Shown in pieces: positions 1,003 to 51,073 of a DNA stretch of 64,000 bases. The number at the start of each line of letters is the position of its first letter. The stretch's first letter is position 1. A program made the position numbers and the translations under genes. A model generated the notes under the pieces. It was not told where the DNA came from. It worked only from the letters and a program-made list of their open reading frames with translations, and made no database searches. This DNA is from Dehalococcoidia bacterium (lineage in GTDB: Bacteria > Chloroflexota > Dehalococcoidia > E44-bin15). The stretch spans positions 426,164 through 490,163 of the forward strand of contig JBAZMV010000001.1 of the NCBI GenBank assembly GCA_041649635.1, given 5' to 3'.

Positions 1003-1114
1003 TTAGACGCTCGATGGGAAATGCTATGCTATAATACACGTGCGATTCAGTAGGGCGGGCTGTGCCCGCCCTACACCCATAATTCACATACCATTGATCG
1101 ATGAAGAGAACGAT

Positions 1115-1672
1115 ATGACGATTACACTGCCGGAAAATCTCCCCCGCATCGAGACCGAACGCCTGCTGCTCAGGCCGTTCGCGCTTGACGACGCGCCCGT
1201 AGTGCAGGAGCTCGCCGGCGATTACGACATAGCTGCCAATGTGAGAATGATACCGCACCCCTACCCGGACCATATGGCCGAGGACTGGATAGACTCGCAC
1301 CGGGACAAGCTGGAGCACGGCGAGATTCACCTGGCGATAACGCTGCGGGACGAGGGAACGCTAATAGGTTCAATAGGCCTTATAGTTAACCGCGACGACG
1401 AGAACGCGGAGCTGGGATACTGGATAGGCAAGCCCTACTGGAACAAAGGCTACTGCACCGAGGCGGCGCGGGCTTTAGTCAAATACGGATTCGGCAAGCT
1501 GAATCTGCACCGCATCCACTCTTTCTATATGACCAAGAATCCGGCTTCGGGGCGCGTCATGCAGAAGCTGGGGATGAAGTACGAGGGGACGCTGCGCAAG
1601 TGCATCAAGAAGTGGGATGTCTTTGAGGATGTGAACGTCTACTCGATACTGATAAGCGAGTACTCAGGTTGA
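1115..1672 (+). CDS. GNAT family N-acetyltransferase (RimJ/RimL-like)
   Basis: ERLLLRPF..DDAP, LGYWIGKPYWNKGY and GFGKLNLHRI motifs typical of ribosomal-protein acetyltransferase-like GNATs. Start moved to the ATG at 1115 (MTITLPEN) behind an aagaga SD. Confidence 0.75.
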   Translation: MTITLPENLPRIETERLLLRPFALDDAPVVQELAGDYDIAANVRMIPHPYPDHMAEDWIDSHRDKLEHGEIHLAITLRDEGTLIGSIGLIVNRDDENAELGYWIGKPYWNKGYCTEAARALVKYGFGKLNLHRIHSFYMTKNPASGRVMQKLGMKYEGTLRKCIKKWDVFEDVNVYSILISEYSG

Positions 1673-1675
1673 GAA

Positions 1676-2160
1676 TTATGTCAACCCCGTGCTCAAAGCT
1701 GTCATTGCGAGTCCTTCCCCGTTAGGAATATGCGGAAGGACGTGGCAATCTCACAGCTAATCAACCCCCTGCAATCCCCCAATACGTTGGTCCTCTGGTA
1801 GGGGCGACCCTTGTGGTCGCCCGCAGCGGGCAGGCACAAGACCTGCCCCTACATATAGGGGACACCCCTATAACCCCGTCATGAGACCCTGTCTCCTGTA
1901 CCTCTTTCTAAAACTACCCTCTCCCTTGAGGGGAGAGGGCTATGGTGAGAGCGTTGTTAGTTCCCTTCTCTTTGATAAAGAGAGGGACTCAAGGGTGAGT
2001 TCGTGCAAGTTCCCCCTCTTTTTAGAAGAGGGGGTAAGGGGGAGTTTATCTTTAAATTATCTTCCCTCTCCCTCTGCAGGGAGAGGGTCAGGGTGAGGGT
2101 CGTAATCCGTCATTCCGGTGAAAACTGGAATCCGGACAGGGCGAGGCGACCTCGCCCCTA
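1676..2160. repeat. Mosaic block of hairpin repeat modules (F,B,C,A,G,H,G,E,C)
   Basis: The same modules recur >10 times each elsewhere in the window in varying order and orientation. Confidence 0.85.
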
Positions 2161-5100
2161 CTTGCTCTTCTTTCTCCCGCCGCTCTTCTTCCCCGCGCTC
2201 TTCCTGGCCACGGTCTTCTTCTTAACGACGCGCTTCTTCTTCGCGGGAAACACTTTGGATACGGCCGCCGCTATCGACTCGCGGCTGAACGGCTTGGCTA
2301 TAACGCCGTCCACCAGTTTCTTCTTTTCCTCATCGAGATCTATGACCCAGCCCGTTATCAGCAACACGGGCACTTCAGGTTTTATCTTCTTAATGGCTCG
2401 GGCCACATCCCAGCCCGACATTTCAGGCATACCGAGGTCGGTAATTACTATGTCGTATTTGCCGTCCTTGAAAGCCTTGATCGCCTCGACTCCTCTGGTG
2501 AAATCCTTGACCCAGTGGCCGAAGTACTCCAGCGTCAGCCCCAGCGCCTTGAGCACCTCGGGCTCGTCATCGACCGTGAGTATGCTGGCTGGTTTGACCG
2601 CGACAGCCTTGCTCTTCCTGGCCTGCTTCCTAACTTCCTCCACGGCCAGGGGCAGCCTGATGTAGAACGTCGTCCCCCTGCCCACCTCGCTGTCGAACTT
2701 TATCATGCCGTTATGCCTTGAGATTATGCCGTAGGTAACGCTCAGCCCGAGCCCCGAACCCTTGGAGGCCTTGGTGGTAAAGAACGGCTGGAATACCTTG
2801 CTCTTCACCTTTTCAGGTATTCCGACCCCTGTATCCTTTATAATTATCTGAACCCACTCTTCTTCCTGCTCGCTCTTAACGGTGAGCTTGCCGCCTGTAG
2901 GCATGGCGTCCAGGGCATTGAACAGTATGTTCAGGAGCGCCTCACGAAGCTCGGCGGCATCGCCTGATACACGTCCCACAGTACCAAGTTCGTGCGTAAC
3001 CTTGATAGCGATCCCCTTGGTCTGTTCCAGCTCCACCCTGCGGGATTCCACCATCTTGAGGACGCCCTCCGCCACCTCGTTAACGTCAAGCGGCTCGAAG
3101 GGATGCTCCACGCGTATCCGCGCGAAGTCCTGCAGGCGCTTCACCGTCTTGGCCGCGTCGAGGGCCGCCTGCTCTATTATCTGGATGCCCTTCTTCACTT
3201 TATCATCCTTGACGTCATCAATGACGAGCTGCGTGCGCCCCAGTATGACCGCCAGCATATTGTTGAAATCATGCGCTATCCCGCTGGCCATCTCGCCCAT
3301 AGCCCGCAGCTTCTCCGACTGCACCATGCGCTCATGCGCCGTCTTGAGCTCTTCATAGGCGCGCTCCAGTTCCACTTCCGCCTTCTTATGCTCCGTGGTC
3401 TCCATGAAGCTGGCCAGGACGGCGCGCCTTCCCTTATACCTGACGGGCGTGACCCTCTCCATGACCCATATCTGACGGCCGTCCTTCCTCAACGCCCTGA
3501 ACTCATAAGGCTGAACGGATGCCCCCTGGATATTATCTACAGCCTTAGTTCTCACCGTATCCCTGTCATCCGGGTGGACAAAGTCTATCGCCTCCTGTCC
3601 CAAGAGCTCCTCGCTGCTATAACCTACAATCTCTTCGAACATGGGGTTCACGTAGATGAACCTTTTATTCTGCAGCAGATATATACCCATGGCGGCGTTA
3701 TCCAGCATGGATCGCGACAGCTCCTCGCTCTCCCTGAGCGCCTCCTCCGCCTTCTTGCGCTCCGTGATATCCTGCCCCTGGGCGATGATAGCCATAGGGG
3801 TCTTGCCGTCCTCGGCGTATATCGGCGATATGTTCCACAGCACCGTCCTGACACCCCCGTCGAGGTTTGCGATGGGTATCTCCACCACCTCCCACCTGGC
3901 GCCCCTCATCGCCGTCCTGATAAAGCTCATGGACCTTTCCCGCGTACCCTTGGGGAACAGTATCTCAAGGTCTTTGCCGATTACGGACTTGGCCTTCATG
4001 CCCGTGAGCCGCTCAAAGGCGCGATTGAACCTTGTGATGCGGAAATCCGGGGTCCAGACAACCATGGGCACGTTGGCGTGCTCGATGAGGTTCTCCATGT
4101 AGTCGCGGGTCTCCCTGAGCTTCTCCTCGGCCTTCTTGCGCTCAGTGATATCCGTATGCACGCCCACAAGCCCGATGACCTTGCCCTTTTCATCCTTTAT
4201 CGCGTCCGCGCGCTCAAGTACGATGAACCTGCGCCCGCTCTTAGATACCATCTCCACCTCCCCGAACCACGAACCTCCACCCATTATCGTATCGAACACC
4301 TTGCGGGCCACATGTTTATTTGCAAAAGCGGCCGGGCCTCCGCCCGCGGCCTCAAGCTCCTCCGGGGTGTACTCGAACAGCTCGGTGAAAGCCCTGTTGT
4401 GATAGAAGTGGTGCCCCTGCGCATCGGATATGCCGATGGCATCGCTTGATCCTTCAACCGCCTTATTGATGCGAAGCAGGGTTTCCTCCACCTTCTTGCG
4501 TTCGGTGATGTCGGTTATGATTCCCATAATCGCCTTCTCACCGACGTAACTTATTAGCTTGGTGCTAAGAATCGTATCAAGCCTCCGTCCGTCCTTAGTG
4601 ATGAGCGCATATTCGTAAGGATCGACATCCCGTCCTTGCATATGGGCCTGGAACTTCTCCTTTATCAGATCACGATATTCCGGCGCCGTTAAGGAATTAA
4701 AGTCGAAAGCTGGAGAGTAAAATTCCTCACTGGTATAGCCCATCATCTCCTCACAGCGGCGGTTGGCATAGACCACGTGCCCCTTCACGTTGATGAATAT
4801 CATATTGGGAGACTGTTCAGCCAGGTTCCGGAATTTCTCCTCGCTCTCCCTCAGCGCTTCCTCCGCTTCTTTGGCAGCGGTCACCTCTATAAGGGAAATC
4901 AATGCCGCCGGCTTCCCCTCATATTCGTACGACGTAGTAGAACCAGCTACCCATATCACACGGCCATTCACCGTCCTGGCCTTTATAACGGCTAGTTCCT
5001 TCCTTTCGGGATCGGCCATGGATTGAGCGAACTGCTGGAGCACCCAGTCCATATCTTCCGGCAGAACATGCTCCTTGATAGCATCAACGCCGACCATTTC

Positions 5101-8100
5101 ATCCGGCGACTTGAACTCGAACATCCTTGCCATGGAATGATTGGCCAGCACTATCCTGCCGGTCTCCGCATCCACCACCTCCATGCCCAGCAGCGTATGC
5201 TCGAAGAGGTCTCTGTACTTGATTTCGCTCTCACGCAGCGCCTCCTCCGCCCTCTTGCGCTCGGTGATATCCGACATGATGCCGGTTACTCCTACCGTTT
5301 GACCGTCACTCAGCGTCGCCTTGCTCGCGGTACGGACCCAACGCACACTGCCATCCTTGAACCTAGTCCTGAACTCGGCGGGCTCAAAACTCCCGCCTAG
5401 TGTTTTCTCAAAGCTGGCCATCAAGTCTGGCAGGTCCTCCGGCAATATAAAGTCAACAAATGACTTGCCAACTATATCGCTGGGGCAGTAGCCGGACAGG
5501 CGTTCGATAGCCGGACTGACATAGGCAAAGTTGCCTTGCGCGTCAAGGGAGAAAATCAGGTCAGCGGAACCCTCCACCAGTATCCTGTACTTCTCTTCAC
5601 TATCCCGCAGCGCATCCTCAGCCTTCTTGCGTTCGCTGATGTCGCGACTGGCGATAATAAAACGCGAGGCGTTTCCAGAAGCATCAAGCAGTGCCCTGGC
5701 GGAGGCTTCTCCCCAAACATAGTGTCCATCGGCATGGCGGAAACGGTACTGATAACTGGCCTCTCCCTTTTCCTGTATCCCATCCAGAGAAGCTATCACG
5801 CTGTTCACATCCTCCGGGCAAAGGAAATCGAAAACAGGCTTTCCTACCAAATCTTCCGTTCTATATCCCAGTATTTTCTGATGAGATGGGCTTGCGTATA
5901 TAATGATTCCCTTCTCATTGACCAGAGATACCGCATCGAGCATATTCTCCGTGATCTCGCGGAACCTTTCTTCGCTCTCCCGCAACGCATCATCCGCCTG
6001 TTTGCGCATCAGCGCCACGCCTATGCTGGCGGCGATGCCCTCGAAGAAGCGTATCATCTCCGGGGTGAAACAGCCCTTGCGTCGATCGTTGAGCTGCAGC
6101 AGGCCAACGATCTCATTGCCGCTGCGGATGGGCATGAGCGCCACGGACTGGAAGCCGGCGTGGATGCAGCGGTTGCGCGGATGGTGCCGCGGGTCCTGCT
6201 CAAGCGGAACGTCGAGTAAAGCCGGCGAATCATTTGTCCAGGCGCTGCCGCCCGGTGTGAAGAGCGGATTGGATGGATCGGTCTTCCCGGACAGCACCAG
6301 GCCGCAGGTGCACTCCAGGCTCACATTGCCGTCCTTGTCGCGGCATATCCCGCCATGCGAGTCGCGGACGACAATCGTATTTTCAGTGAGCAGGAAATCC
6401 TCGGAGAATCCGTTCTGGACAAAGTACGGGAAGTCCTCGTCCTTTTTCAATCGAATTCCAACAGCGTAGAATCCCGTCTCCCGCTTGATGGCGGTAAGGA
6501 TGCGGTTGATGGCATCAGGCAGCGCCAACGGCTCATTAAGGATACCCAGTATCTCAGCGGCCAGCTTCTGATGAGCTTCCGCCTGCCTGCGTTCGATTAA
6601 ATCCCTCGCTACAACCACAATGCCGACCGGCTTGCCATTCGCGTCCAACATCAGGCTGCCCGAGGACTCAAGCGGCACTCTGCGCCCGCTCCTTGTAACT
6701 ATATTGTACCGGGCTACAGCCGGCTGTCCGCTTGTAATCAGTTCCTGCAGCGCCGCGGCAACCACCTCCCTATCTTCAGGAGCAACAGGTTCCAGCGCAC
6801 TTACGCCAATCTCATCTGTTTCAAAAAGCTTTCGTGCCGACTCGTTCAAATTTCTGACATTGCCTTCCATGTCAAGGATCAGGACAGGATCAAGCGTTGC
6901 CATAAACGCGTTGGAGAGTTCGATGATCCGGGATTCCGCCTTCTTACGTTCGGTGATATCGCGGAGTATGGCCATCATGCCCGTGGGTTTCCCGGTCTCA
7001 CCACGTATGAACGATACCATCATTTCGACAACGACTATGGAACCGTTTTTGTGGATCATCTCCAGTTCCAGGGTTTGCCCCAATCCGCTCTCCGGGTGGC
7101 GTTTTTCACGTTCCAACCCGGCCAGGAAGTACTTGGCAGCCTTCTCCATTGAGTCGGACGTCATTCTACCTTCCATGGTGCCTTCCAGCGCTTCTTCCAC
7201 GGAGTAGCCCAGCACGCGGTTGACGGACGGGCTGAAATAAACAGGTTTGGCATTCATATCCATGAGCATTATGACGTCAGAAGCGTTTTCGGCCAGCAGG
7301 CGGTACTTCTCCTCGCTCTCGCGCAGCGCCTCCTCAATCCGCTTGCGCTCGGTAATATCACGGTGCGTAACGATCAGCCCTATCGGATTTCCATTGGCGT
7401 CCTGCATCACTGTAGTATCGGTGTCAGCCAGATATTCACTGCCGTCCTTTCGCAGCAGAGTGAGCTCTATCGGCACACCCAGACCTGAGGCTAAATTATT
7501 AGACAGAGCCTGAGCCGCCCTGTCGCGATCCTTTTCACTGATAAAGTCAAATCCGTTTCTCCCGATGACTTCTTCTTTGCGGTCAAATCCGGTCAATTTC
7601 AACAATTCTGCATTAACATCAATGATTTTCCCTGACACATCGGTTACCGTGATACCAACGCCAACGGTCTGGAATAATATGCGCAGCTTCTCCTCGCTCT
7701 CCTGCAGCGCCTTATCCATGCGCTTGCGCTCGGTAACGTCTCTGGTAATGGCAATAACGGCGGGCCTGCCCTCATACTGAATAAGCTTCGTCGAGTTCTC
7801 CATCTCCTTGACCGAGCCGTCCTTGCACAGCATCCTGGTCTCAAAAATCTCGGGAACTTCTTTGCCTTCGGCACGCAGGCGGAATCTCTCTTCTAATACA
7901 GGGGCGAAGTCCGGCGGCACCAGATCGAACGTTGACATTGCAGTCAATTCTTCAACGGTATAACCGGACATCTCAGACATGCGTTTATTGACGAACTTTA
8001 GGGCCTGGTCCTGGATAATGCTGACGCCATCCGTCGCGTTCTCAACAAGGGTCGAGTATTTCTCCTCGCTCTCCCGCAGCGTTTCTTCCATGCGCTTGCG

Positions 8101-10095
8101 GTTGGTGATATCCGTATTAAACCCATGCCAGATTACACTGCCGTCAGCCAATTTCTCCGGCGTAGACTGGCCTAGCAACCATCTCACGGGCTTCCCGGGA
8201 ACCTGCACCCGGTATTCACACTGCCAGAGAGTCATATGTTCGGCTGAATACTCTATCGATTCCACTAACCTGCCGAGGTCCTCGGGCAAGACCACCCTGG
8301 TTACCGGAGAGAAATCATCGCGCACATCTTCCGGAGAGCATCCTAGAATATCCTTTATAGAATCCGTAGAAAAGGGAGCGCAGTACGTTCCATCAGGCCT
8401 TCTCAAGAACTGATAGATCATTCCGGGGACGTTATAAGCTAGTTTCTTGAATAGCCGGTCGCTTTCCCGCAGCGCCTCCTCCGCCCGCTTGCGCTCGTTG
8501 ATATCGCGCGAGACAGCGTATAGGCCGGTGATTTTCCCCTGCTCATCCCTGTTAGCACTGACCACGTGCTCCAGCCACACCGTGGAGCCGTTCTTGTGAT
8601 AGTACTCGGCTTCTATCGTTATAGTCCTATCGGGATCCACACCCTCCTTCCCATCCCGTTCCATCTCGGCTGTAAATACATTCATGATATGCTCGTAGGA
8701 CTGTGGTGTTACCGCTTCGTGATTTGTTATACCGACACGTTCCTCCGGTGTGAATCCGAGAACTTTAAATACGGACGGGCTGGTATAGGTAGGGCGGAAA
8801 TCAAGTCCCATGGTCCATACAATATCGTTCATCCTCTCCGTGAGGATACGATATTTCTCCTCGCCCTGGTGCAACGCCTCCTCCGCCCGCTTGCGTTCCG
8901 TTATATCACGCAGGTTCACAACTATGCCGCCGACAGCGGGATCATCGAGGAAACTTGTGGCGCTTACCTCAAAAGAATGCCACGAGCCGTCTTTATGACG
9001 CGCACGTACTTCGGAACGGCCCACAACATCTGATTCGATTCTTTTCATTCCATCGATCAGCGCATGCATATCATCCGGATGTATCGGATCAAAAACAACC
9101 TGCCCTATACGTTCCCCTTCGCTGTACCCCAGCAGGCGCGAGCAGCTAGGGCTTTCGTAAAGGATTTTCCCTCTGCTGTCCAGCACCATGATTCCGTCGG
9201 AGCTGTTTTCAATCAGCGACCGGAAGTACCTCTCCTTTTCCGTAAGCGCTTCCTCCATGCGCTTGCGCTCGGTGATGTCGACGTTTAACTCGGAGACCAG
9301 CCACTCGCCGTCGGCGCTCTGGAAAGGTATTGTATGCACTTCGACAATGCGGTTGTTCTCGCGCGGCAGCACATGCTCGGCCACGCCTGTCTGGTGAGTA
9401 CGGAAAGTATCGGGGATGGCGCAATCCCGGCATGCTTCCTTTTGCCCCCTGAAATACTCGTAGCATTTCCGGCCCGCGGGATCGCCATAGACCTTCTGCC
9501 ATTCCGGATCTACATAGCGCAGGTTGAACTCGCTATCGATTACATCGATATTGGTTTTACTCAAACCTATGATTTCTTCGAACCATTCATTTACTTTCTT
9601 GAGTTCTCCCTGCGCCTGCTTGAGCTTGGTGACGTCATGAAAATTTACAACGATGCCGCCGATAGCGGGCTCCTCAAGATGATTACGCGCTTCCGAATCC
9701 AGGGTATGCCAGGTGCCGTCGGGGTACAGCGCCCGTATCTGCATCCGCACGATCGTTTTGGGGTTCTTGATTATTTCAGTGAAATTCTTCCCTATCACAG
9801 GGATATCATCGGGGTGAATATTCTTGAACAAGTCCTGCCCCAGCACGCCCTCCGCCTTAAAACCCCACACCTTCTCGAAGTTCGGGCTGATATAGGTGAC
9901 GTTGCCCTGGCTCCCCAGTACGACGGTAACGTCCGATGCGGACTCGACCAGGGTGCGGAACCGTTCCTCGCTGCGCCGCAGCACCTCATCTATCTTCACG
10001 CGCTCAGCCGCAACAGCTTCAAGCTCGGCCGTCCGCCGGCGCAAACGATCCAGTTCGTCGATGAGCTGTCCCTGATCCCTGTTCTGATCATCCAT
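2158..10095 (-). CDS. Giant hybrid sensor histidine kinase/response regulator (2645 aa) with ~16 PAS/PAC modules and one GAF
   Basis: PAS modules are separated by a recurring coiled-coil linker ITERK(R/K)AEEALRESEEKYR. Has a GAF with a Cys-rich segment, HisKA H-box AHDFNNMLAVI, HATPase_c (DTGVGIP, GSGLGLS), a C-terminal REC (VDDEPEV...ITDLGMPEMSG) and a Lys-rich tail. Confidence 0.9.
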   Translation of the reverse strand: MDDQNRDQGQLIDELDRLRRRTAELEAVAAERVKIDEVLRRSEERFRTLVESASDVTVVLGSQGNVTYISPNFEKVWGFKAEGVLGQDLFKNIHPDDIPVIGKNFTEIIKNPKTIVRMQIRALYPDGTWHTLDSEARNHLEEPAIGGIVVNFHDVTKLKQAQGELKKVNEWFEEIIGLSKTNIDVIDSEFNLRYVDPEWQKVYGDPAGRKCYEYFRGQKEACRDCAIPDTFRTHQTGVAEHVLPRENNRIVEVHTIPFQSADGEWLVSELNVDITERKRMEEALTEKERYFRSLIENSSDGIMVLDSRGKILYESPSCSRLLGYSEGERIGQVVFDPIHPDDMHALIDGMKRIESDVVGRSEVRARHKDGSWHSFEVSATSFLDDPAVGGIVVNLRDITERKRAEEALHQGEEKYRILTERMNDIVWTMGLDFRPTYTSPSVFKVLGFTPEERVGITNHEAVTPQSYEHIMNVFTAEMERDGKEGVDPDRTITIEAEYYHKNGSTVWLEHVVSANRDEQGKITGLYAVSRDINERKRAEEALRESDRLFKKLAYNVPGMIYQFLRRPDGTYCAPFSTDSIKDILGCSPEDVRDDFSPVTRVVLPEDLGRLVESIEYSAEHMTLWQCEYRVQVPGKPVRWLLGQSTPEKLADGSVIWHGFNTDITNRKRMEETLRESEEKYSTLVENATDGVSIIQDQALKFVNKRMSEMSGYTVEELTAMSTFDLVPPDFAPVLEERFRLRAEGKEVPEIFETRMLCKDGSVKEMENSTKLIQYEGRPAVIAITRDVTERKRMDKALQESEEKLRILFQTVGVGITVTDVSGKIIDVNAELLKLTGFDRKEEVIGRNGFDFISEKDRDRAAQALSNNLASGLGVPIELTLLRKDGSEYLADTDTTVMQDANGNPIGLIVTHRDITERKRIEEALRESEEKYRLLAENASDVIMLMDMNAKPVYFSPSVNRVLGYSVEEALEGTMEGRMTSDSMEKAAKYFLAGLEREKRHPESGLGQTLELEMIHKNGSIVVVEMMVSFIRGETGKPTGMMAILRDITERKKAESRIIELSNAFMATLDPVLILDMEGNVRNLNESARKLFETDEIGVSALEPVAPEDREVVAAALQELITSGQPAVARYNIVTRSGRRVPLESSGSLMLDANGKPVGIVVVARDLIERRQAEAHQKLAAEILGILNEPLALPDAINRILTAIKRETGFYAVGIRLKKDEDFPYFVQNGFSEDFLLTENTIVVRDSHGGICRDKDGNVSLECTCGLVLSGKTDPSNPLFTPGGSAWTNDSPALLDVPLEQDPRHHPRNRCIHAGFQSVALMPIRSGNEIVGLLQLNDRRKGCFTPEMIRFFEGIAASIGVALMRKQADDALRESEERFREITENMLDAVSLVNEKGIIIYASPSHQKILGYRTEDLVGKPVFDFLCPEDVNSVIASLDGIQEKGEASYQYRFRHADGHYVWGEASARALLDASGNASRFIIASRDISERKKAEDALRDSEEKYRILVEGSADLIFSLDAQGNFAYVSPAIERLSGYCPSDIVGKSFVDFILPEDLPDLMASFEKTLGGSFEPAEFRTRFKDGSVRWVRTASKATLSDGQTVGVTGIMSDITERKRAEEALRESEIKYRDLFEHTLLGMEVVDAETGRIVLANHSMARMFEFKSPDEMVGVDAIKEHVLPEDMDWVLQQFAQSMADPERKELAVIKARTVNGRVIWVAGSTTSYEYEGKPAALISLIEVTAAKEAEEALRESEEKFRNLAEQSPNMIFINVKGHVVYANRRCEEMMGYTSEEFYSPAFDFNSLTAPEYRDLIKEKFQAHMQGRDVDPYEYALITKDGRRLDTILSTKLISYVGEKAIMGIITDITERKKVEETLLRINKAVEGSSDAIGISDAQGHHFYHNRAFTELFEYTPEELEAAGGGPAAFANKHVARKVFDTIMGGGSWFGEVEMVSKSGRRFIVLERADAIKDEKGKVIGLVGVHTDITERKKAEEKLRETRDYMENLIEHANVPMVVWTPDFRITRFNRAFERLTGMKAKSVIGKDLEILFPKGTRERSMSFIRTAMRGARWEVVEIPIANLDGGVRTVLWNISPIYAEDGKTPMAIIAQGQDITERKKAEEALRESEELSRSMLDNAAMGIYLLQNKRFIYVNPMFEEIVGYSSEELLGQEAIDFVHPDDRDTVRTKAVDNIQGASVQPYEFRALRKDGRQIWVMERVTPVRYKGRRAVLASFMETTEHKKAEVELERAYEELKTAHERMVQSEKLRAMGEMASGIAHDFNNMLAVILGRTQLVIDDVKDDKVKKGIQIIEQAALDAAKTVKRLQDFARIRVEHPFEPLDVNEVAEGVLKMVESRRVELEQTKGIAIKVTHELGTVGRVSGDAAELREALLNILFNALDAMPTGGKLTVKSEQEEEWVQIIIKDTGVGIPEKVKSKVFQPFFTTKASKGSGLGLSVTYGIISRHNGMIKFDSEVGRGTTFYIRLPLAVEEVRKQARKSKAVAVKPASILTVDDEPEVLKALGLTLEYFGHWVKDFTRGVEAIKAFKDGKYDIVITDLGMPEMSGWDVARAIKKIKPEVPVLLITGWVIDLDEEKKKLVDGVIAKPFSRESIAAAVSKVFPAKKKRVVKKKTVARKSAGKKSGGRKKSK

Positions 10096-12109: not shown

Positions 12110-13045
12110 TCCGAGGCGTACGTGCGGCTGTCGGCGGGTGATGCTGTGGCGGTATGCTCCGTTATTAAAAATAGCCCGGCTTCGCCGAGCGTCGGTTCAC
12201 GCTTACATTATACTACCAAATCGATTGTAAGGTAATTGCGGGTTTATGTCAAGAATATGATGGTGTCGGTCGATAGGAAACCGAACCCCCTGTCAGGCCC
12301 CTTTCTCAAAGCTGTCATTGCGAGTCCTTCCACGATAAAATTAGGCGGAAGGACGACGTGGCAATCTCGTAGCTGGTCAACCCCCTGTATCCCCCAATCA
12401 TGGGGGATGAAAAAAAAGATATAGGGGACACCCCTATAACCCCGTCAGGAGACTCTGTCTCCTGTACCTCTCTTAGCTAGCTAACCCCTCTCTCGGAGAG
12501 GTGCCTGGATTCGGATTGTAATATTAATAAACCCGTCTTGTAGGGGCGAGGTCATCTCGCCCTTCAGCCCCACCGTAGGGGCACGGCATGCCGTGCCCGT
12601 TGTGTTCCCCCTCTTTTTAGAAGAGGGGGTTAGGGGGTGTTAATTTAAAATTATTTCCCTCTCCCTGCGCAGGGAGAGGGTCAGGGTGAGGGTCGTACTC
12701 GTCATTCCGGCGAAGGCCGGAATCCGCGTAGGGGCGTATGGCCATACGCCCGTTATTTGGTGGGTTTCTGAACCCACCCTACATACGATCGTTGCGTAAG
12801 GGCTTGATTAATCAAGCCCTTACATCCCGGCCCCTATCGGCGAAAGAGACGACCTCGCCCCTACGCAAATCCCCCTTGCTCCCCCCTTTCATAAAGGGGG
12901 GAGATATATCTCGTTTATATGCTGTTGATGGTGTTCTTCACCTTCAACAATTAGAGGGTGTCCTTCTGCGGAAGGACTCCCGTTATTTGGTGGGTTTGCG
13001 AACCCACCCTACATACTACATACGATCGTTGCGTAGGGGCGAATC
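12110..13045. repeat. Mosaic repeat block (~0.9 kb; F,B,A,C,H,G,E,C,D,I,D,C modules)
   Basis: Contains no coding potential. ORF 12738..13076 in the six-frame track is a translation of D/C/I modules. Confidence 0.85.
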
Positions 13046-13597: not shown

Positions 13598-13860
13598 TCA
13601 ACCCCCTGCTATTCCCCTATATGTTGGTTATTGCGTAGGGGCGAACCTATGTGTTCGCCCACAGCGGGCAGGCACAATCCTTCCATATGCCTTAATGTCA
13701 TGGAAGGATGCCCCTACGTTGGATGGGTAACCACAGGGGGTTACCCCTACGCGGTGGGTTTGCTGAATCAAACCCCTACGTTTCGTTATCGGGTTGCGGC
13801 GAATCGTGAGGGGCATCTCAGGGCTCAGGGCGGGGGAATTTTGATTTTGGTCGCTTTTTA
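13598..13860. repeat. Repeat block (B,C,J,D-like modules)
   Basis: gtaggggcgaacctatgtgttcgccc and ccttccatatgccttaatgtcatggaagg hairpins. Confidence 0.7.
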
Positions 13861-14351: not shown

Positions 14352-14940
14352 TGAGGCTCATAAGTAGTCAACCCCCTGCAATCCCCCTTGTCAAGGGGGA
14401 AACAATAACCGAACCCCCTATAGTCCCCCATACGTTGGGGGACAGATATTGTCCGGGGGACACCCCCGGTTCCCCCGGCCCCGATATATCGGGGCACCTC
14501 TTTCTTAAGGGCTGTCACTGAAATGATATAGGGGACACCCCTATAACCCCGTCAGATGGAGCGCTCTCTGTACTCCCCAGCTGTCATTGCGAGGAGTCCT
14601 TCTGTACACCCTAATTATGGAAGGACGACGTGGCAATCTCGTAGCTGTTCAACCCCCTGTTATCCCCCATACGTCGGTCATTATGCAGAGACGCAAAATA
14701 TTGCGTCTCTACGGGGGCGCCCCGCCGTTCGGTCGTCGCGTAGTGGCGAATCTTGTGTTCGCCTTTTACGTCCCTTTGTAGGGGCACGGCATGCCGTGCC
14801 CGTCGTGTTCCCCCTCTTTTTAGAAGAGGGGGTAAGGGGGAGTTAAATACCCTCTCTATTGACTTTGATATCCATAATCGCTAATCTAATCGCATTACAG
14901 AAGCCCGTTCAAATATCCATCAGGGGCAATCTTACTGAGG
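14352..14940. repeat. Mosaic repeat block (B,B',A,F,B,C,C',H)
   Basis: Modules as defined in the summary. Confidence 0.85.
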
Positions 14941-14950: not shown

Positions 14951-15553
14951 ATGTTTATCGCATCGGGTGTGCTGGGACTTATCATTCCACTGTTCGTCAT
15001 CGGCGTCATCCTCTATCTTGTTCTGAAGCGCCGCAACGACAGGGAGGGCGTTTCAGCTTATAAGGGCCTCCTCATGGTCTATTTCTACACTCTTATAGGA
15101 GCCAGCATCATTATCGCCGCTATAGGCGCGGGGTATCTCCTATCAGCCGCTTTCAGCTCGGCCTACAGCGACAGGTCGATCGTAAATGACCTCACAGCGG
15201 GCATCACGATGTTCTGTACCGGCACCATCATCTGCGTGCTGCATGTAGTAGGCAAGAAGGCCGTGGAGGCCAGAGAGGGAAAGACCACGCCGCTGCTGAG
15301 GCGGGTATATCTGTTCATCATGCTCGGCATCTTCAGCATGGGAGGCATCGTGTCTCTGCCGCTGGCGATATATGAAACCGCCCGCTACTATGTGAAAGAT
15401 GAAACTTCCTGGGGCGATCCGTCCGGAGCCATCGCGGCGGCGGTCGTTATCGTGCCGCTGTGGATATACTACCTGATGAGGGTCATGCGCGAGGCGCGCG
15501 CCGCGAGGAACGAAGAGGCGTCGTCGGATGATACGACCGGAGGAGTGACATAG
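14951..15553 (+). CDS. Hypothetical integral membrane protein (4 predicted TM helices)
   Basis: ATG behind a ctgagggggtg SD. Hydrophobic segments alternate with charged loops. No recognisable catalytic motif. Confidence 0.6.
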   Translation: MFIASGVLGLIIPLFVIGVILYLVLKRRNDREGVSAYKGLLMVYFYTLIGASIIIAAIGAGYLLSAAFSSAYSDRSIVNDLTAGITMFCTGTIICVLHVVGKKAVEAREGKTTPLLRRVYLFIMLGIFSMGGIVSLPLAIYETARYYVKDETSWGDPSGAIAAAVVIVPLWIYYLMRVMREARAARNEEASSDDTTGGVT

Positions 15554-16200
15554 TCAACCCCCTGCTATCCCTTTCTCAAAGCTGTCATTGCCACGTCCTT
15601 CCCCTTATGAATATGAGGAAGGACGTGGCAATCTCCTAGCTAGTCAACCCCCTGCTATCCCCCAATCTTGGGGGATGTAAAAAAGAGTTAGGGGACACCC
15701 CTATAACCCCGTCAGGAGAGGAATCTCCTGAATCTCTCTTCTCTTGGACTGTCATTCTGAGTCCTTGCGGAGAATGACGAAGAATCTCGGCTACGTGGTG
15801 GGTTTGCGAACCCACCCTACATGCGATCGTCGCGTAGGGGCGAATAATCATTCGCCCGTTCCGTTCGTAGGGGCATGGCGTGCCGTGCCCGTCGGATTCC
15901 CCCTCTTTTGAGAAGAGGGGGTAAGGGGGTGTTCAAAATTAATTTTCTTCCCTCTCCCTCCGCAGGGAGAGGGTCAGGGTGAGGGTATGCGCGACGCAGA
16001 TGGGATGTCGTTGGTCGATAATATACCGAACCCCCTATAGCCCCCCATACGTTTCCTTCCATAATAGGTGCTATTTAGAAGAATTCCGGATTGGAAGGGA
16101 ATATTTGAAGGTTAGGGGGACACCCCCGGTTCCCCCGGCAGAGGGAAGACCCTCTGCACACCCTCATTAACGCGCATAGACCCTCATATCATTATGCCCC
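15554..16200. repeat. Mosaic repeat block (B-half,F,B,A,F',D,C,C',H,G,B')
   Basis: Includes a 21-bp perfect direct repeat tagtcaaccccctgctatccc flanking an F module (15551-15571 and 15640-15660). Confidence 0.85.
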
Positions 16201-16337: not shown

Positions 16338-16425
16338 GCCGATAAAGGTAAACCCCGGGCGATCGGGGGGCGCAAAGCTACAGGTCTCGAGGTTGAGAGA
16401 GACGGCTGAGCTGCCGAAACAGAGT
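16338..16425 (+). ncRNA. Candidate c-di-GMP-I (GEMM) riboswitch in the 5' leader
   Basis: GGTAAACC + P1 hairpin CCCCGG-GCGA-TCGGGG (GNRA loop) + GGCGCAAAGC, then a second hairpin gcuacagGUCUC..GAGACggcugagc. This matches the GGCAAACC...GNRA...GGACGCAAAGC hallmark of GEMM-I. Confidence 0.45.
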
Positions 16426-16490: not shown

Positions 16491-17270
16491 ATGAGCGCAC
16501 AGAGAAGACATTTTCACACAAGAGTCATCTCGGCTATAGTGATTCTTATTGCCATCACGCTCGTGATGATACCCGGCATAGAGGATGAAGGCGTGGTCTA
16601 CGGTTACGGCGGCGGAGGCGGTGGCGGCGGAGGCGGAGCCCCCACCAATCAGAACTGGGGCGTGTGCATCGACGGGAACTGCGACAGAGGCAACGTCAAT
16701 TTCTGGGGCACCACCCTCGATAATTTCTGGGCCGTATCTAATGACATATCGATATACATACCCAAATACACGGACATGAAGGGCCCAGAAAACTCACGCC
16801 TCACCGGGTTCAACGCATATGAAATAGACGATCCCCCCTCTCCCCCCTCGGGCTACCAGGTGCTCGCCGCCTTCGACTTCAACCCGGACGGCGCGACCTT
16901 CGACCCGGGCATCACGATAAACATCAAGTTCGACGAGGGCGACATCCCGGCGGGAAAGACCCCGGTCATCGCATATTACAACGAGACCAAAGGCGAGTGG
17001 GAGTTCATAGAGGGCACGATACAGGACGGGCAGGCGGTCTTCACCATCACCCACTGCTCCATCTACGGCCTGCTGGTTCAGGCGGCCCCGGCCCCCACGT
17101 CCACGCCGTCGGGCGGCACCCCGACCCCGGCCCCCACGGATGACGGAGGCGGACTCGGCATAGGCGCCATCATCGGCATCGTCATCGCGGCGCTGGTGGT
17201 TCTGGCCATCGTAGTCTACATATTCCTGGGCAAGAAATACGGCTGGAAGAAGACGGGCGGGTCGGCGTAG
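16491..17270 (+). CDS. Gly-rich cell-surface protein with N-terminal signal/anchor and C-terminal TM anchor
   Basis: ATG at 16491 behind an aggggg SD. Has a G12 run, a Thr/Pro-rich linker, then GLGIGAIIGIVIAALVVLAIVVYIFLGKKYGWKK, a hydrophobic segment plus basic tail. Confidence 0.65.
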   Translation: MSAQRRHFHTRVISAIVILIAITLVMIPGIEDEGVVYGYGGGGGGGGGGAPTNQNWGVCIDGNCDRGNVNFWGTTLDNFWAVSNDISIYIPKYTDMKGPENSRLTGFNAYEIDDPPSPPSGYQVLAAFDFNPDGATFDPGITINIKFDEGDIPAGKTPVIAYYNETKGEWEFIEGTIQDGQAVFTITHCSIYGLLVQAAPAPTSTPSGGTPTPAPTDDGGGLGIGAIIGIVIAALVVLAIVVYIFLGKKYGWKKTGGSA

Positions 17271-18611: not shown

Positions 18612-19000
18612 ATGTCGCTGGGCGCTAGCTGACCGAACCCCCTGTAATCCCCCATACGTTGGGGGATTTTTTATTAATATAGGGGACACCCCTATAACCC
18701 CGGCAGGAGAGTATCTCCTGCATCTCTGTCCAGAACCGTCATTCCGGCGAAGGCCGGAATCCACGTAGGGGCGAATAATCATTCGCCCATTATTCGGTGG
18801 GTTTGCGAACCCACCCTACGTTCTACGTTCGGTCATCGTGTAGAGACGTCCTTCCGCGGAAGGACGTCTCTACGGGGGCGCCCCGCCGTTCGCCCCTACA
18901 CGCTACCCACTACATGCTATATATGGTAGAATCGTTTCATAATCGTACTTCAACAATTAACGTAGATTTCGGTGGGCACAGCCCAACCTACGCAACTACT
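18612..19000. repeat. Repeat block (B,A,E,C,D modules)
   Basis: The N-terminal extension of ORF 18797 in the six-frame track is a repeat translation. Confidence 0.8.
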
Positions 19001-19984: not shown

Positions 19985-20560
19985 GTTGGGCGATAGCTAA
20001 TCAACCCCCTATTATCCCCCAATCATGGGGGATTTTTTTATTAATATAGGGGACACCCCTATAACCCCGTCAGGAGACGCCGTCTCCTGTACCTCTGTAT
20101 GAAGCTAACCTCTCCCTTGAAGGGAGAGGACTACGGTGAGGGTGATAATATGCCCCGCATCTGTCATTCTGAGTCCTTCCATGATAGAGCTATTTAGAAG
20201 GATGAAGAATCTCGTCAACGCGGTGGGTTTGCGAACCCACCCTACGGACCGTCATTCCGGTGAAAACCGGAATCCATATCGGGCGAGGCAACCTCGCCCC
20301 TACTGTCATTCTGAATCCTCCTGACGAACGATGAAGAATCTCGTCTATTCACCGTTCGGTCGTCGCGTAGGGGCGAATCCTGTATTCGCCCGTTATTCTA
20401 CGTATCGTCATTCCGGCGAAGGCCGGAATCCATGGCGGGCGAGGCAACCTCGCCCCTACATGTGATGACGCTACACGCTATATGTGGTAGAATCCTTTCA
20501 TAATCGTGCCGAGCCGCTTTTCAGCGGGTATGATGACGGGGTAAAATTGTTGTAGAGGTG
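19985..20560. repeat. Mosaic repeat block (B,A,G,F',D,E,C,F',C,E,C)
   Basis: Modules as defined in the summary. Confidence 0.85.
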
Positions 20561-21084: not shown

Positions 21085-21440
21085 TTGGGCGATAGCAGAC
21101 CGAACCCCCTGTAATCCCCCATACGTTGGGGGATTTTTTTATTAATATAGGGGACACCCCTATAACCCCGTCAGGAGACGCCGTCTCCTGTACCTCTATC
21201 TAGAACCGTCATTCCGGCGAAGGCCGGAATCCATATCGCGGGCGAGAAGACCTCGCCCCTACATGTGATGACGATACACGCTATATATGGTAGAATCCTT
21301 TAATCGATATGCTGTTGAAGGTGTTCTTCACCTTCAACAATCAACGCAGGATTTCGGCGAGGTGAAGAACACCACGCCGAGCAAAGAATATCCAAACCGG
21401 ACGCCCCGCGGCTGAGGGGTTGTGCAACACGAGCCGATGA
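21085..21440. repeat. Repeat block (B,A,E,C,I modules)
   Basis: Modules as defined in the summary. Confidence 0.8.
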
Positions 21441-24343: not shown

Positions 24344-26263
24344 ATGTGCGGGATATGCGGGCAGTTCATATTCAACGGCATAGCGCCGTCCGATATTGCT
24401 GCTACGAGCAACATGTGCTCGGTTCTGAAGCATCGCGGCCCGGATGACGAGGGTTTTTACAACGACGGCTTTATTTCGCTGGGTCATAGGCGACTGAGCA
24501 TCATAGATATAGAGGGCGGCCATCAGCCTATAAGCAATGAGGATGGAACGGTCTGGGTTATAACCAATGGCGAAATCTACAATTTTAAAGAGTTGCGAAA
24601 TGCTCTTGAGAAAAGCGGCCATGTTTTTTCCAGCAGGAGCGACAGCGAAGTTCTCGTTCACTTATATGAAGAGCAAGGACGCGCTTTGGTTAAAGAACTG
24701 CGGGGAATGTTCGCCTTCGCTATCTGGGATTCACGTAATAAGACTCTGCTTCTTGGAAGGGATAGATTAGGTAAGAAGCCTCTGTTCTATGCTTATAACC
24801 AAGAGCGTTTTCTGTTCGCATCAGAGCTCAAAGCTCTACTGCAAGAGCCAAGTATTAAACATGAAGTGAACTTAACTTCCCTGCACCACTTTCTGACGCT
24901 GCAATGGGTGCCCGGCCCCCAGACCATTATTCAGGGCGTTAACCAGCTACAGGCAGGCCATACTCTTGTCTGCTCCAACGGGCAGGTGAAAATAGAAAGA
25001 TACTGGGAACCGGAGTTCCTTCCCAAAAACAAGCTGTCAAAAGACGAAGCCCTGGAAGCCACGCAGTCATTGTTGGAAGAGGCGGTCAAGTTACGCCTGG
25101 TGAGCGATGTTCCCCTGGGAGCCTTCCTGAGCGGCGGGCTTGATTCTAGCTTGATCGTAGCCCTGATGGCGCGGGCAACGGATAAAAAGGTTAAGACCTT
25201 CTCCGTGGGGTTTACGGAAGAAGCCTTCAGCGAGTTAGAACATGCGCGTGCAGTTGCCAAATACTTTGATACCGAACACGAAGAGATATTTGTTAAGCCG
25301 GATATCATAGCATTGCTTCCCAAGCTCATATGGCATCTTGACCAACCTTTAGCCGACCCTGCCGCAATTCCAACATATTATCTATCGGAGTCTACAAGAA
25401 GGCATGTTACCGTAGCCCTCAATGGCGATGGCGGAGACGAAACCTTTGCAGGCTATCAGCGCTATTTTGCCGACGGTATAGCCGATGCTTATGCTGTTGT
25501 GCCTGCAGCAGTAAGAAATAAGCTCATTCTTCCTGTGTTGAGGAGGTTTACCGGCGTTTCGGATAAGCCCGTTGATACCGATGTTTGGGGTGCCGTAATA
25601 CGCATGCATCAGGCGGCTGATATTGCGCAGGAAGCCAGTATCATCAGGTGGGGTTCATATTTCAACTCCGACATGAAAGATGATATTTATAGTGATGAGC
25701 TGCGCAATACTCTGCGGAATACGGACTCCGTAGAACTGCTGCGTGAGACTTTCCGCCGCGCAGAAAATCATGCGGATAACAGGTTGGACAAGACACTGTA
25801 TGTTGATATGATGAACTATCTCCCCGACGACCTTCTGGTCAAGATTGACCGGATGTGCATGGCTAACTCATTAGAAGGGAGGTCGCCGTTTCTGGATCAA
25901 AAATTTGTGGAGTTTGCCTGCCGCATGCCAATAGAATTTAAGGATAAGAGAACGACTACAAAATACCTGCTGCGGGAACTGGCGAAAAAGATAATCCCTC
26001 AGGATATTGCCGCGCGGCGCAAGCACGGTTTCTCGGTTCCCATTGGAAGCTGGATCCGGTCGGAACTGAGAGATATGACATATGAAACATTGCTGAGCCC
26101 ACAGGCATTGAGCAGAGGCTATTTCAAGCAGCAAGCGCTTGAAAATCTTCTGGACGAACATTGTGCAAAAAAGGCTGACCATGGAAAGCGGATATGGGCA
26201 TTGCTTTGCCTGGAATTATGGCATCAAGTTGTTATAGATTATACAAAAATACCGATGAGTTAA
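24344..26263 (+). CDS. asnB: Asparagine synthase (glutamine-hydrolysing) family amidotransferase, glycan-cluster type
   Basis: N-terminal MCGI Cys nucleophile, SGGLDSS PP-loop motif, 639 aa. Confidence 0.85.
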   Translation: MCGICGQFIFNGIAPSDIAATSNMCSVLKHRGPDDEGFYNDGFISLGHRRLSIIDIEGGHQPISNEDGTVWVITNGEIYNFKELRNALEKSGHVFSSRSDSEVLVHLYEEQGRALVKELRGMFAFAIWDSRNKTLLLGRDRLGKKPLFYAYNQERFLFASELKALLQEPSIKHEVNLTSLHHFLTLQWVPGPQTIIQGVNQLQAGHTLVCSNGQVKIERYWEPEFLPKNKLSKDEALEATQSLLEEAVKLRLVSDVPLGAFLSGGLDSSLIVALMARATDKKVKTFSVGFTEEAFSELEHARAVAKYFDTEHEEIFVKPDIIALLPKLIWHLDQPLADPAAIPTYYLSESTRRHVTVALNGDGGDETFAGYQRYFADGIADAYAVVPAAVRNKLILPVLRRFTGVSDKPVDTDVWGAVIRMHQAADIAQEASIIRWGSYFNSDMKDDIYSDELRNTLRNTDSVELLRETFRRAENHADNRLDKTLYVDMMNYLPDDLLVKIDRMCMANSLEGRSPFLDQKFVEFACRMPIEFKDKRTTTKYLLRELAKKIIPQDIAARRKHGFSVPIGSWIRSELRDMTYETLLSPQALSRGYFKQQALENLLDEHCAKKADHGKRIWALLCLELWHQVVIDYTKIPMS

Positions 26264-26375
26264 CTAATCTAGAGGAGGTATAGGTATTAGTTCTCTTATA
26301 TCGCACTTAATTAAGCCTAAACGACATTCAAGAACAGGGAAAATAAATGTACTCCACGTAATAGATCATCTTGGA

Positions 26376-27491
26376 TTGGGCGGAGCACAGACACTGTTAT
26401 TGGATTTGTTAAAGGATTGGGACAGCGAAAAATACAGAGTATATGTCTGCGCTTTAAAGAAGCCAGGGGTATTGGATAAGCAAGCGAAAGCTCAGGGTTT
26501 AAACGTAAGTTATTTTGACAGACAGAAGTATGATCCCAGAAAGATTCTTGACCTGATCAGATTCATCAGGAAGAATAAGATTCAAATAGTTCACACGCAT
26601 CTGCTTGGCGCGGGCATTATTGGGCGGATTGCCGCAACTATTTGCCAAGTGCCAGTTGTGATTGTGCACGACCATAGCGGGTTCCCAATGTTGAGCAATA
26701 TCCCTACAGTATATTCGCGTCTTCTACGTATGATGGATAAACCACTGACGTATGTTACTGATAGAGTTATTGCAGTATCGTATTCAGTGAAAGAGCGGCG
26801 TATTAAAAGGGGATTACCAGATAAAAATAAGGTTGTTGTTATCCACAATGGTATAGATATAAATAAATTCAATAGTGATCTTTATGACAATGACAAAATC
26901 AGAGAGACTATGTCTATCGGTGCATCGGATGTAGTTATAGGGGCTGTTGGGCGTTTAAGTCCTGAGAAGGGGCTTGATTTTCTACTTGAGGCTGCGTCAA
27001 AGATTTATAGTAAATATACGGAAGCTAAGTTGGTCATAATTGGCGATGGGCCATGCAGAAATATGTTAGAGCAACAAACCATCGACCTGGGGATAAGTGA
27101 GAAGGTCATTTTCACCGGATTCAGAGATGATGTTCCCGAATTGTTATCGGCGATGGACATATTTGTTTCATCGTCGCTTTTTGAAGCGTTTCCGATGGTT
27201 ATACTAGAGGCAATGTCAATGTCCAAACCGGTGGTTGCTACAAATGTGGGGGGTATTCCAGAGATGATAATACCCGGTGTGACAGGTTTTATAGTGCCGC
27301 CAGGTGATTCAGAGGCTTTATATACAGCTATTATTCAATTGTTGGATGATCCGGACAGAAGGATAACGTTTGGTCAAAATGGGCGGCAACGTATTGAAGA
27401 GTTTTTTACAACGCAAGTCATAGTGAATAAACTAGTAGAGTTATATGATGAACTTGTAGGTTGTAAATTAAATAAGGCACATCTTGAATGA
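26376..27491 (+). CDS. GT4 family glycosyltransferase (true start probably upstream, non-canonical)
   Basis: GGAQ motif and EAFPMVILEAMSMSKPVVATNVGG. The conserved first beta-strand VLHVIDHLGLGGAQ lies in-frame upstream of the first TTG (26376). There is no ATG/GTG/TTG back to the in-frame stop at 26265. A GAGGAGG SD at 26272-78 sits 7 nt before an ATT at 26286. Confidence 0.7.
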   Translation: MGGAQTLLLDLLKDWDSEKYRVYVCALKKPGVLDKQAKAQGLNVSYFDRQKYDPRKILDLIRFIRKNKIQIVHTHLLGAGIIGRIAATICQVPVVIVHDHSGFPMLSNIPTVYSRLLRMMDKPLTYVTDRVIAVSYSVKERRIKRGLPDKNKVVVIHNGIDINKFNSDLYDNDKIRETMSIGASDVVIGAVGRLSPEKGLDFLLEAASKIYSKYTEAKLVIIGDGPCRNMLEQQTIDLGISEKVIFTGFRDDVPELLSAMDIFVSSSLFEAFPMVILEAMSMSKPVVATNVGGIPEMIIPGVTGFIVPPGDSEALYTAIIQLLDDPDRRITFGQNGRQRIEEFFTTQVIVNKLVELYDELVGCKLNKAHLE

Positions 27492-27506
27492 TGATGGAGA
27501 TCAAAT

Positions 27507-28730: not shown

Positions 28731-28735
28731 CGGCA

Positions 28736-29260: not shown

Positions 29261-29263
29261 GAA

Positions 29264-30650: not shown

Positions 30651-30741
30651 TGCGGTTTCAAAACATGAAAACTTAACCGCGCAGCTCACTGCAGACACAT
30701 ATTTTCAGCAAGAACTTATAGAGTTTCGCAAAGACGAATGA

Positions 30742-32028: not shown

Positions 32029-32037
32029 CCCGCCATT

Positions 32038-39234: not shown

Positions 39235-40210
39235 TATCTAATTCCTTGTCGACAATCCTTTTGCCGGGTTTTAAACTCACCCTTCCTTCCATATACCGAG
39301 ATGTCATGGAAGGATTCCCTCTCTTTCGTAAAGAGAGGGATGCTTTATATGCTGTTGAAGGTGTTCTTCTCCTTCAACAATTAATTGGGCGAGACAACCT
39401 CGCCCCTACACGCTACCCTCTATGCGCCACCCGTTTTTTTATGGTAGAATCCTGTCATGTTCAAACTGAAATCGTCCCGCGTGCGTGAAGTGGCGGACAC
39501 CACCTTTATCCTTCTGGTCATAGCCCTCACATTCATCCTTTTACTGGGCAGATTCGCCGATGTCAGGCAGTACGTTAGCCTGGACTACTTATTGGCTATT
39601 ATACTTCTAATAGGAGTTTTTTCAATCCTGCTGCGTTCGGAATAACGCAAAACCCGCATGAACTCACCCTCAGGTCCCTCTCTTTCGCAAAGAGAGGGGA
39701 CGAGCTATATCTCCCCCCTTTGGTAAAGGGGGATCGAGGGGGATTTACGTAGGGTGGGTTCAGAAACCCACCAAATAACGCTCGTATGGCCATACGCCCC
39801 TACGCGCCGACCGAATGTAGGGGTTTGATTCATCAAACCCGCGGCCCCCTCCATGGATTCCGGTTTTCACCGGAATGACGAAACGTAGGGTGGGTTTGCG
39901 AACCCACCACGTTGACGAGATTCTTCATCATTCCTAACAAGGATTCAGAATGACAGTCCAAGAGAAGAGAGATTCAGGAGATTCCTCTCCTGACGGGGTT
40001 ATAGGGGTGTCCCCTATCTCTTTTTTTACATCCCCCAAGATTGGGGGATAGCAGGGGGTTGACTAGCAATTGAGATTGCCACGTCGTCCTTCCGAACTGC
40101 GGAGGGACTCCTCGCAATGACAGCCTTGAGAAAGGATGTCCCGTAGGGGCAATTCATGAATTGCCCCTACACGATGACCGAAACGTATGGGGGATTCCAG
40201 GGGGCACAGA
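39235..40210. repeat. Mosaic repeat block (~1 kb; J,I,C,D,C,E,D,F',A,B,F,C' in both orientations)
   Basis: Six-frame ORFs 39246..39488 and 39599..39793 are repeat translations. Confidence 0.85.
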
Positions 40211-50988: not shown

Positions 50989-51073
50989 TGGTGGGGAAGG
51001 AGGGACTCGAACCCTCAAGCCTTGCGGCACATGATCCTAAGTCATGCTCGTCTGCCAATTCCGACACTCCCCC
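50989..51073 (-). tRNA. tRNA-Leu (anticodon TAG)
   Basis: Revcomp GGGGGAGTGTCGG...CATGACTTAGGATCATG...GGGTTCGAGTCCCTCCTTCCCCACCA. 7-bp acceptor stem, long variable arm, anticodon loop CTTAGGA, encoded CCA. Confidence 0.85.

Follow-up and report, generated by a model that had tools for sequence, protein, structure and literature searches.

Known mosaic repeats and the arrays of the window

The NIMEs of Neisseria are composed of RS segments bounded by dRS3 repeats (ATTCCC-N8-GGGAAT), and the BOX elements of Streptococcus pneumoniae have the structure boxA-boxB(n)-boxC and are thought to move as a whole. The SDR of cyanobacteria, reportedly described by Elhai et al. in 2008, are said to be very small nested mobile repeats. 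The REP/BIME repeats of Enterobacteria and Pseudomonas are short G+C-rich intergenic hairpins, placed mostly at gene 3′ ends, that combine with linker motifs into mosaics varying between strains (PMC3733652, PMC2817692). GTAG repeats occur in Chloroflexi, REPs can supply TAG stop codons, REPs of Thermomicrobium roseum lie inside other small palindromes, and Neisseria has ‘large mosaic intergenic regions’ (PMC3733652).

Here we describe arrays of hairpin modules (B, C, D, F and others) in a 64,000-nt stretch of a Dehalococcoidia genome, hereafter the window, for which the closest known kinds are the REP/BIME mosaics and the Neisseria NIMEs. With REP/BIME the arrays share short G+C-rich intergenic hairpins mostly at gene 3′ ends, strain-variable mosaics of hairpins and linker motifs, and palindromes with a GTAG head (GTAGGGGCGA...TCGCCC and others), which are present in both orientations. 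Unlike REP/BIME, modules B, C, D and F have no GTAG/CGTC head (F starts GTCATTGC), GTAGGG heads in the same arrays being confined to separate g-type hairpins, and they are co-oriented in a fixed periodic order rather than alternating; we therefore regard the B-C-D-F arrays as mosaic repeats in kind but not as members of the BIME family. No RAYT was found among the 10 scanned ORFs of the window or in the gene calls of contig L001. In general description like NIMEs, the arrays consist of different short repeat modules that are parted by small hairpins and that recombination between arrays reshuffles, and the F″ modules (GTCATTCCGGCGAAGGCCGGAATCC) have an ATTCC...GGAAT form; sequences, phylum and grammar differ, and the link to phage integration and antigen genes belongs to NIMEs. 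BOX elements likewise have co-oriented modules whose internal number changes by recombination or slippage, a kind of change by which heads recur as direct repeats, but they comprise three modules, whereas the present arrays are open-ended, hold at least six module types and have heads abutting stop codons. The SDR, with tiny modules inside one another, are the model behind the original prediction for this DNA, in which F hairpins had inserted into B modules; unlike in that system, our flank census of F gives no insertion footprints.

Full-text literature searches, including searches with sequence strings, found no description of these modules, and Rfam 15 at the gathering threshold matched none of them in the window, returning only an SRP RNA, two tRNAs and a c-di-GMP-I-GGC riboswitch. 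The riboswitch aptamer (RF03167, 63.4 bits) lies at 16338-16419 (+), upstream of an ORF without a Pfam domain (16491..17270), and the same leader is kept in contigs L003, L006, L191 and L196. The SRP RNA gene (RF01854, 44315-44579, −) has B-C modules on both sides, at 44212-44279 and 44680-44749 (−), and the tRNAs are at 53508-53580 (−) and 50992-51073 (−). Other features of the window are an ORF at 2158-10095 (−) that encodes 2645 aa with ~20 tandem PAS domains and a DNA period of ~375 nt, a low-GC island at ~26000-34000 (36-43% versus ~55%) with glycosyltransferase and glycerophosphotransferase genes, and two 300-nt segments (49607-49906 and 50288-50587) that are 80% identical and lie in two adjacent 152-aa ORFs without a Pfam match.

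Module grammar

Annotation of the window with simple patterns gave a fixed module order, namely B, a T- or A-rich linker, C, a tail, D, a linker, F or F′, an 8-nt spacer and the next B head. Module B, present in 32 copies in the window, consists of a head (AACCCCCTG..ATCCCCC) and a CCCCC-loop-GGGGG hairpin, C is GGGGACACCCC (AGGGGACACCCCT) with AACCCCGTC as the tail after it, and the linker before F or F′ ends in ...CCCCTTTCTCAAGGCT or a variant (...CCCCTTTCTCAAAGCT). Arrays open with one B module or two, placed at a stop codon or just past it, and the GTAG-headed REP-like hairpins come later. Within every array B, C, D and F share one orientation, and only the g (GTAG-type) hairpins occur in both. 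In a full cycle, one B head lies ~95 nt upstream of F and another 8 nt downstream, and a B head follows 10 of the 11 F copies in the window, with or without a B head upstream. The linker sequence TTTCTCAA(A/G)GCT is not peculiar to F, as it also joins D to the different hairpin F′, both in contig L174 (GGACACCCCTTTCTCAAAGCTGTCATTCTGA) and at ~46170 of the window.

The GTAG-headed hairpins at ~1776-1852, ~13612-13680 and ~14664-14715 of the window, and at ~820-900 of contig L005, are often inverted doublets (GTAGGGGCGA..TCGCCC-ACAGC-GGGCAGGCACAAG..GCCCCTAC). They stand in for the B 3′ arm and linker, with the breakpoint always right after ...CCCCCATACGTTGG, and GTAG hairpins in B are a better candidate for true nesting than F.

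A 21-bp direct repeat around an F hairpin

The sequence TAGTCAACCCCCTGCTATCCC is found exactly on the + strand at 15551-15571 and 15641-15661 and again at 40045-40065 (−); allowing up to three mismatches it occurs 11 times in the window, compared with 0.00 expected from 100 shuffles. It is the head of module B. The original prediction of a perfect 21-bp direct repeat holds as to identity, with the second copy placed one position too early (15640-15660), and an F hairpin is indeed bracketed by the two copies, which are separated by 69 nt (15572-15640) holding a linker, the 50-nt F hairpin and a spacer.

The first copy (15551..15571, +) begins within the DUF5671 gene (14951..15553, +), whose TAG stop codon at 15551-15553 forms its first 3 nt, and is a truncated B consisting of the head and the start of the 5′ arm, with the hairpin absent; it is orthologous to the sole B head of L003. 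It is followed by the 12-nt sequence TTTCTCAAAGCT (15572..15583, +), which is the usual D-to-F/F′ linker rather than a terminus of F, then by the F hairpin (GTCATTGCCACGTCCTTCC-loop-GGAAGGACGTGGCAATC, 15584..15633, +) and the 7-nt F-to-B spacer TCCTAGC (15634..15640, +), within a GGCAATCTC-N8-TCAACCCCCTG junction conserved in 10/11 window F copies. The second copy belongs to a complete B module (15641..15676, +) with its hairpin ATCCCCCAATCTTGGGGGAT at 15657-15676. Next on the + strand are an A-rich linker (15677-15689), the C palindrome AGGGGACACCCCT (15690-15702), the C tail ATAACCCCGTC (15703-15713) and the D hairpin (15714-15729); the whole of 15677-15729 is orthologous to L003 and near-identical to a paralogue at ~40040-39960 (−). 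The array continues at 15730..15929 (+) with a linker, an F′ hairpin (15751-15786), three GTAG-type REP-like hairpins (15795-15820, 15834-15857 and 15867-15890) and a module E (15897-15929).

Shorter, imperfect versions of the head-F-head arrangement exist in the window, as had been predicted. One (TGTCAACCCCGTG-CTCAAAGCT-F-B head, 1678..1795, +) lies just downstream of a GNAT acetyltransferase ORF (1040..1672) and has TCAACCCCGTGC (1680-1691) versus TCAACCCCCTGC (1761-1772) on its two sides; the other is a head-linker-F-B-C-D array (12279..12460, +) in which AACCCCCTGT occurs at 12284-12293 and 12379-12388. The paralogous linker-F-B-C-D array at 39960..40135 (−), which contains the third exact 21-mer, has no B head upstream of F. 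Among the 32 B heads of the window, 21-nt identity is seen in 4/496 pairs (0.8%), three of which come from the trio 15551/15641/40065; in the window's other arrays, several positions distinguish the B heads on either side of F.

The F hairpin at 15584-15633 is itself unusual. On folding, it has an uninterrupted 16-bp stem that is unique among the 11 F copies, with a dG of −18.6 versus −4.5 to −13.8 for the others. In this one copy of 11, GCGAG(GAG) in the 5′ arm is replaced by GCCACG, the exact complement of the 3′ arm. The rewritten arm looks like the footprint of an intrastrand template switch, similar to quasipalindrome correction, a form of template-switch mutagenesis reportedly described by Ripley and by Lovett and co-workers. 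A multi-base change that perfects the F stem fits one intrastrand templated event of this type; such an event accounts for the stem and by itself leaves the flanking 21-bp repeat unexplained. Template switching, which the original prediction had offered as one source of the repeat, thus has a footprint inside this F copy, and its part in the repeat itself is weighed below. The F copies of the three window head-linker-F-B loci are the most alike, at 85-89% identity.

Flank census of F copies

A metagenome scan for the F-to-B junction returned 61 stretches, of which roughly half were true elements belonging to related Dehalococcoidia. The census set comprised 37 non-redundant junctions, 10 in the window and 27 in other contigs, classified so as to keep the B head apart from the C tail (AACCCCGT). 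Upstream of F we found C-D-linker in 18 cases, unique or other sequence or another hairpin in 14, and a B head directly in 5. In the 18 copies with a full cycle, the distance to F is 93-98 nt from the end of the preceding B head and 46-52 nt from the end of C. The five repeats in the head-F cases measure ~8, 10, 10, 11 (17/19) and 21 nt, and in the case from L174 the downstream B head is 38 nt from F, not 8. The head-linker-F build recurs at two further loci of the window and, in other samples, in contigs L174 and L173, and arrays may also open with linker-F-B right after unique DNA (L148, L179, L129 and L136). In a GTDB scan with the F 3′ arm, the matches listed were mostly chance hits or F-type hairpins lacking B; among them, F-type hairpins are common across Chloroflexota, often without B.

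These flanks speak against F as an inserted element. A MITE-like element would show repeats at most copies, repeats of fixed length and target-derived sequence, and termini exclusive to the element, whereas the census places a head directly upstream of F in only 5/37. The predicted target-site duplication is not supported by a repeat that is always the B head, never a copy-specific target, and that varies from ~8 to 21 nt. Nor is there support for a discrete 68-bp element, its supposed termini being shared linkers and its 3′ spacer and head being present in 10/11 window copies regardless of what lies upstream.

Comparison with related strains

The window sequence at 7322-28608 is 100% identical to ENA ERZ27247363 contig k141_1204271 (L001/L194), which is probably the source of the window and so provides no independent confirmation of 15551-15661. 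No independent assembly covering 15551-15661 was found, and an exact match to the DUF5671 protein led only to the source contig. All the contigs compared were assembled from short metagenomic reads, and the paths that they take through repeats may be incorrect.

The closest strain is represented by L003, from another sample, in which the DUF5671 protein is 96% identical to that of the window and the flanks are 92-95% identical in DNA. It has the identical stop codon and head (TAGTCAACCCCCTGCTATCCCCC), one B head and no F; past the head, a truncated hairpin is followed by another whose loop is ATACGTT and by a T-rich linker, and the sequence then rejoins the window at C-D-linker-F′. A precise empty site would be the window minus exactly 90 bp (...GGAGTGACATAGTCAACCCCCTGCTATCCCCCAATCTTGGGGGATGTAAAAAAG...; GGAGTGACATAGTCAACCCCCTGCTATCCCCCAATCTTGGGGGATG), which L003 does not match because ~40 nt after its head are of a different hairpin and linker type. 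Set beside the empty site expected from nested insertion, L003 has F missing and a single head present but a stretch of another type behind that head. Further along, window 15821-16152 and L003 ~806-997 differ by replacement of a whole module block.

Contig L174 is syntenic with the window at lower identity (BipA 91%, DUF5671 67%). In the BipA-CAP intergenic region, both have a B head at the same position and the same F subfamily. A 75-nt block of B hairpin, T-rich linker, C and D lies between head and F in L174 only, whereas in the window (12279-12400) the head is fused to the linker; after F, a hairpin-linker-C segment is present in the window and absent in L174. Since L174 has a full cycle at the place of the copy at 12284, the left repeat there is the head of a preceding full cycle. 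This is essentially the outcome that the original prediction had itself named as evidence against insertion, with F and B in one ancestral unit. The reverse situation is found upstream of the DUF5671 promoter, where L174 has head-TTTCTCAAAGCT-F and the window (14365-14640) has a full B-B-C-...-D-linker-F; the junction of head and TTTCTCAAAGCT in L174 falls after ...TCCC, exactly as at 15571/15572. Given these reciprocal cases, the junction forms repeatedly, with two F subfamilies, at places where the other genome has a full cycle. A possible D remnant, ‘TCAGG’ at 12290, was considered and rejected, because alignment places it in the B head's variable portion.

Strains with 92-97% DNA identity in the genes beside an array differ by replacement of whole module blocks; for arrays away from the 15551 site, that identity is 95-97%. 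The 210 nt at window 18700-18909 correspond to 435 unrelated nt in L195 (2033-2467) between flanks that are 96% identical. Contigs L147 and L173 have flanks of 99.2% identity and differ in their array (L147 9226-9406, L173 3770-3845); the difference takes in the beginning of the array together with the ~10 initial codons of the neighboring gene on the minus strand, and because it is a replacement that includes an N-terminus and not a clean indel, it could not be used to polarize the event. Arrays downstream of distant DUF5671 orthologues (L004, L005, L006, L188, L189 and L191-L193) are unrelated or absent and therefore give no polarization of the 15551 event either. In L004 the DUF5671 orthologue is followed directly by an IS110-family transposase (1091-2044) instead of a module array. 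The downstream-gene contigs P0032, P0033 and P0049 run downstream only and end at the array, and they show another strain-level array polymorphism; contigs of related strains often break at arrays. The idea that the modules are mobile is thus borne out in the sense of rapid strain-level rearrangement but not in that of insertion into one another with target-site duplication.

Origin of the repeat

We consider the 21-bp repeat to be, probably, the heads of two successive B modules in a periodic, co-oriented array that lost the modules in between, and take recombination or slippage inside hypervariable mosaic arrays as the best reading, with somewhat better than even confidence. The first cycle at 15551 would have lost its interior (B hairpin, linker, C and D), and the C-run of the B head (CTATCCC) would have become fused to that of the D-to-F linker (GGAC(A/T)CCCC|TTTCTC); with that interior missing, the first head would run through the C-run into the linker and F would be left between two heads. 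The B head with its 5′ arm and the D 3′ arm with its linker are alike over ~15 nt (CCCCCTGCTATCCCC versus CCCTCTGGACTCCCC), a likeness that would favor slippage or short-homology recombination, here between ...CCCCCTGCTATCCCC of B and ...CCCTCTGGAC(A/T)CCCC of the D 3′ arm and linker, and we infer a deletion of this kind at 15551. Both heads could have become identical via tandem duplication of neighboring cycles or gene conversion; adjacent cycles within L147 are near-identical, suggesting that cycles duplicate in tandem, which can make neighboring heads identical. No transposase would take part. Set against a deletion, the heads agree at 21/21 positions though only 0.8% of B-head pairs do, and the closest strain has no F, which at face value is a gain in the window lineage; a two-cycle ancestor of the 15551 site was not found among the genomes compared. 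The 85-89% likeness of the three window F copies could also mean one composite copied thrice rather than three deletions.

The rarity of 21-nt head identity (4/496) keeps template switching alive as a reading, possible though unlikely, in which copy-choice synthesis produced a 90-bp gain with a perfect 21-bp repeat. Synthesis on an intact B at the stop codon would switch at the C-run to a paralogous array, copy linker, F and spacer, and switch back at the start of B-head homology, so that the resident head is copied a second time. The F-less orthologous site in L003, the templated correction of this F copy to a perfect palindrome, the two other head-linker-F-B copies as its closest relatives, and the paralogue at ~40 kb with an identical head and near-identical B-C-D all agree with it, but L003 is not the predicted empty site, its ATACGTT-loop hairpin and T-rich linker needing at least one further event, the orthologue of the copy at 12284 is a full cycle and not an empty B, and in L174 the same junction involves a different F subfamily, with 38 nt between F and the head that follows. 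More doubtful is a broader proposal, that a ~90-bp unit of linker, F, spacer and B head is added to B heads at stop codons by homology-guided copy-choice and forms, with the other modules, a self-propagating nested miniature family. If it were true, the hypervariable, terminator-like gene-end arrays of this Dehalococcoidia lineage would be the work of that family, which would spread without an element-encoded transposase and leave long repeats of the target module itself.

Classical transposition, with F as a miniature mobile element inserted in B and a 21-bp target duplication, appears very improbable. Its attraction is that the direct repeat abuts both sides of the 69-nt segment, that taking out this segment and one repeat leaves an intact B, and that F-type hairpins without B exist in many other Chloroflexota genomes. 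Bacterial target-site duplications are usually 2-14 bp, far below the 21 bp seen here, and the census shows no head directly upstream in 32/37 copies, repeats of 8-21 nt that are always the same sequence, ends that are shared linkers rather than termini, and the four arrays that open with linker-F-B after unique DNA; no transposase was found among the 10 window ORFs in a Pfam scan or in the gene calls of 7322-28608. An assembly artefact, in which a de Bruijn assembler mispathed near-identical modules into the head-F-head order, is suggested by the MEGAHIT-style name (k141) of the matching contig, the single assembly that covers the site and the tendency of related strains' contigs to break at arrays. 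We give it very little weight, since the repeat is far shorter than k and the build recurs at two window loci and in L174 and L173 from other samples; even the longest near-identical stretch shared with the paralogue (~125 nt, 2 differences) is below k=141, and both flanks are syntenic with L003. Loss of the interior of a cycle by recombination or slippage, our preferred reading, is in keeping with what is observed directly: the grammar and its spacing, the rarity of heads immediately upstream of F, the linker common to F and F′, the orthologous full cycle at 12284 and the strain-level polymorphism of the arrays.

Terminator-like signals and stop codons

Between 12 and 22 kb of the window, 27 terminator-like signals were counted, compared with 8.4±3.3 in shuffles. 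The B hairpin with a T-rich linker scores as an intrinsic terminator after three genes, at 18646, 20014 and 21113, and at 15657-15702 it is the C hairpin that has a T-run behind it, and this on the minus strand alone. Judging from sequence, the arrays probably act as terminator-like 3′ structures.

Two polarities of the B-linker-C segment exist: where the linker is T-rich, the B hairpin reads as a terminator on the gene strand (18646-18668, 20014-20033 and 21113-21135, +), and where it is A-rich, the C hairpin does so on the opposite strand (12420-12438 and 15689-15703, −). Heads overlap stop codons or start 1-3 nt after them at window 13595, 15551, 18609, 19979 and 21076, and heads likewise lie at stops in L174 (~2990), L195 (~1942) and L197 (~2374). 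A longer head, (A/G)ATGTCG(T/C)TGGnCGATAGC..CCGAACCCCCTG, recurs immediately after the stops of several genes in several genomes.

Implications

Where a periodic module supplies the repeat as its head, a long perfect direct repeat around a hairpin does not by itself speak for transposition. The arrays combine a fixed grammar, heads that abut or supply stop codons and terminator-like hairpins, and are apparently undescribed in the literature searched. They break short-read assemblies of Dehalococcoidia MAGs. Turnover of the arrays between strains outpaces point divergence in the flanking genes (3-5%), and the arrays could be used to mark strains and to study slippage and template-switch mutagenesis in a natural setting.
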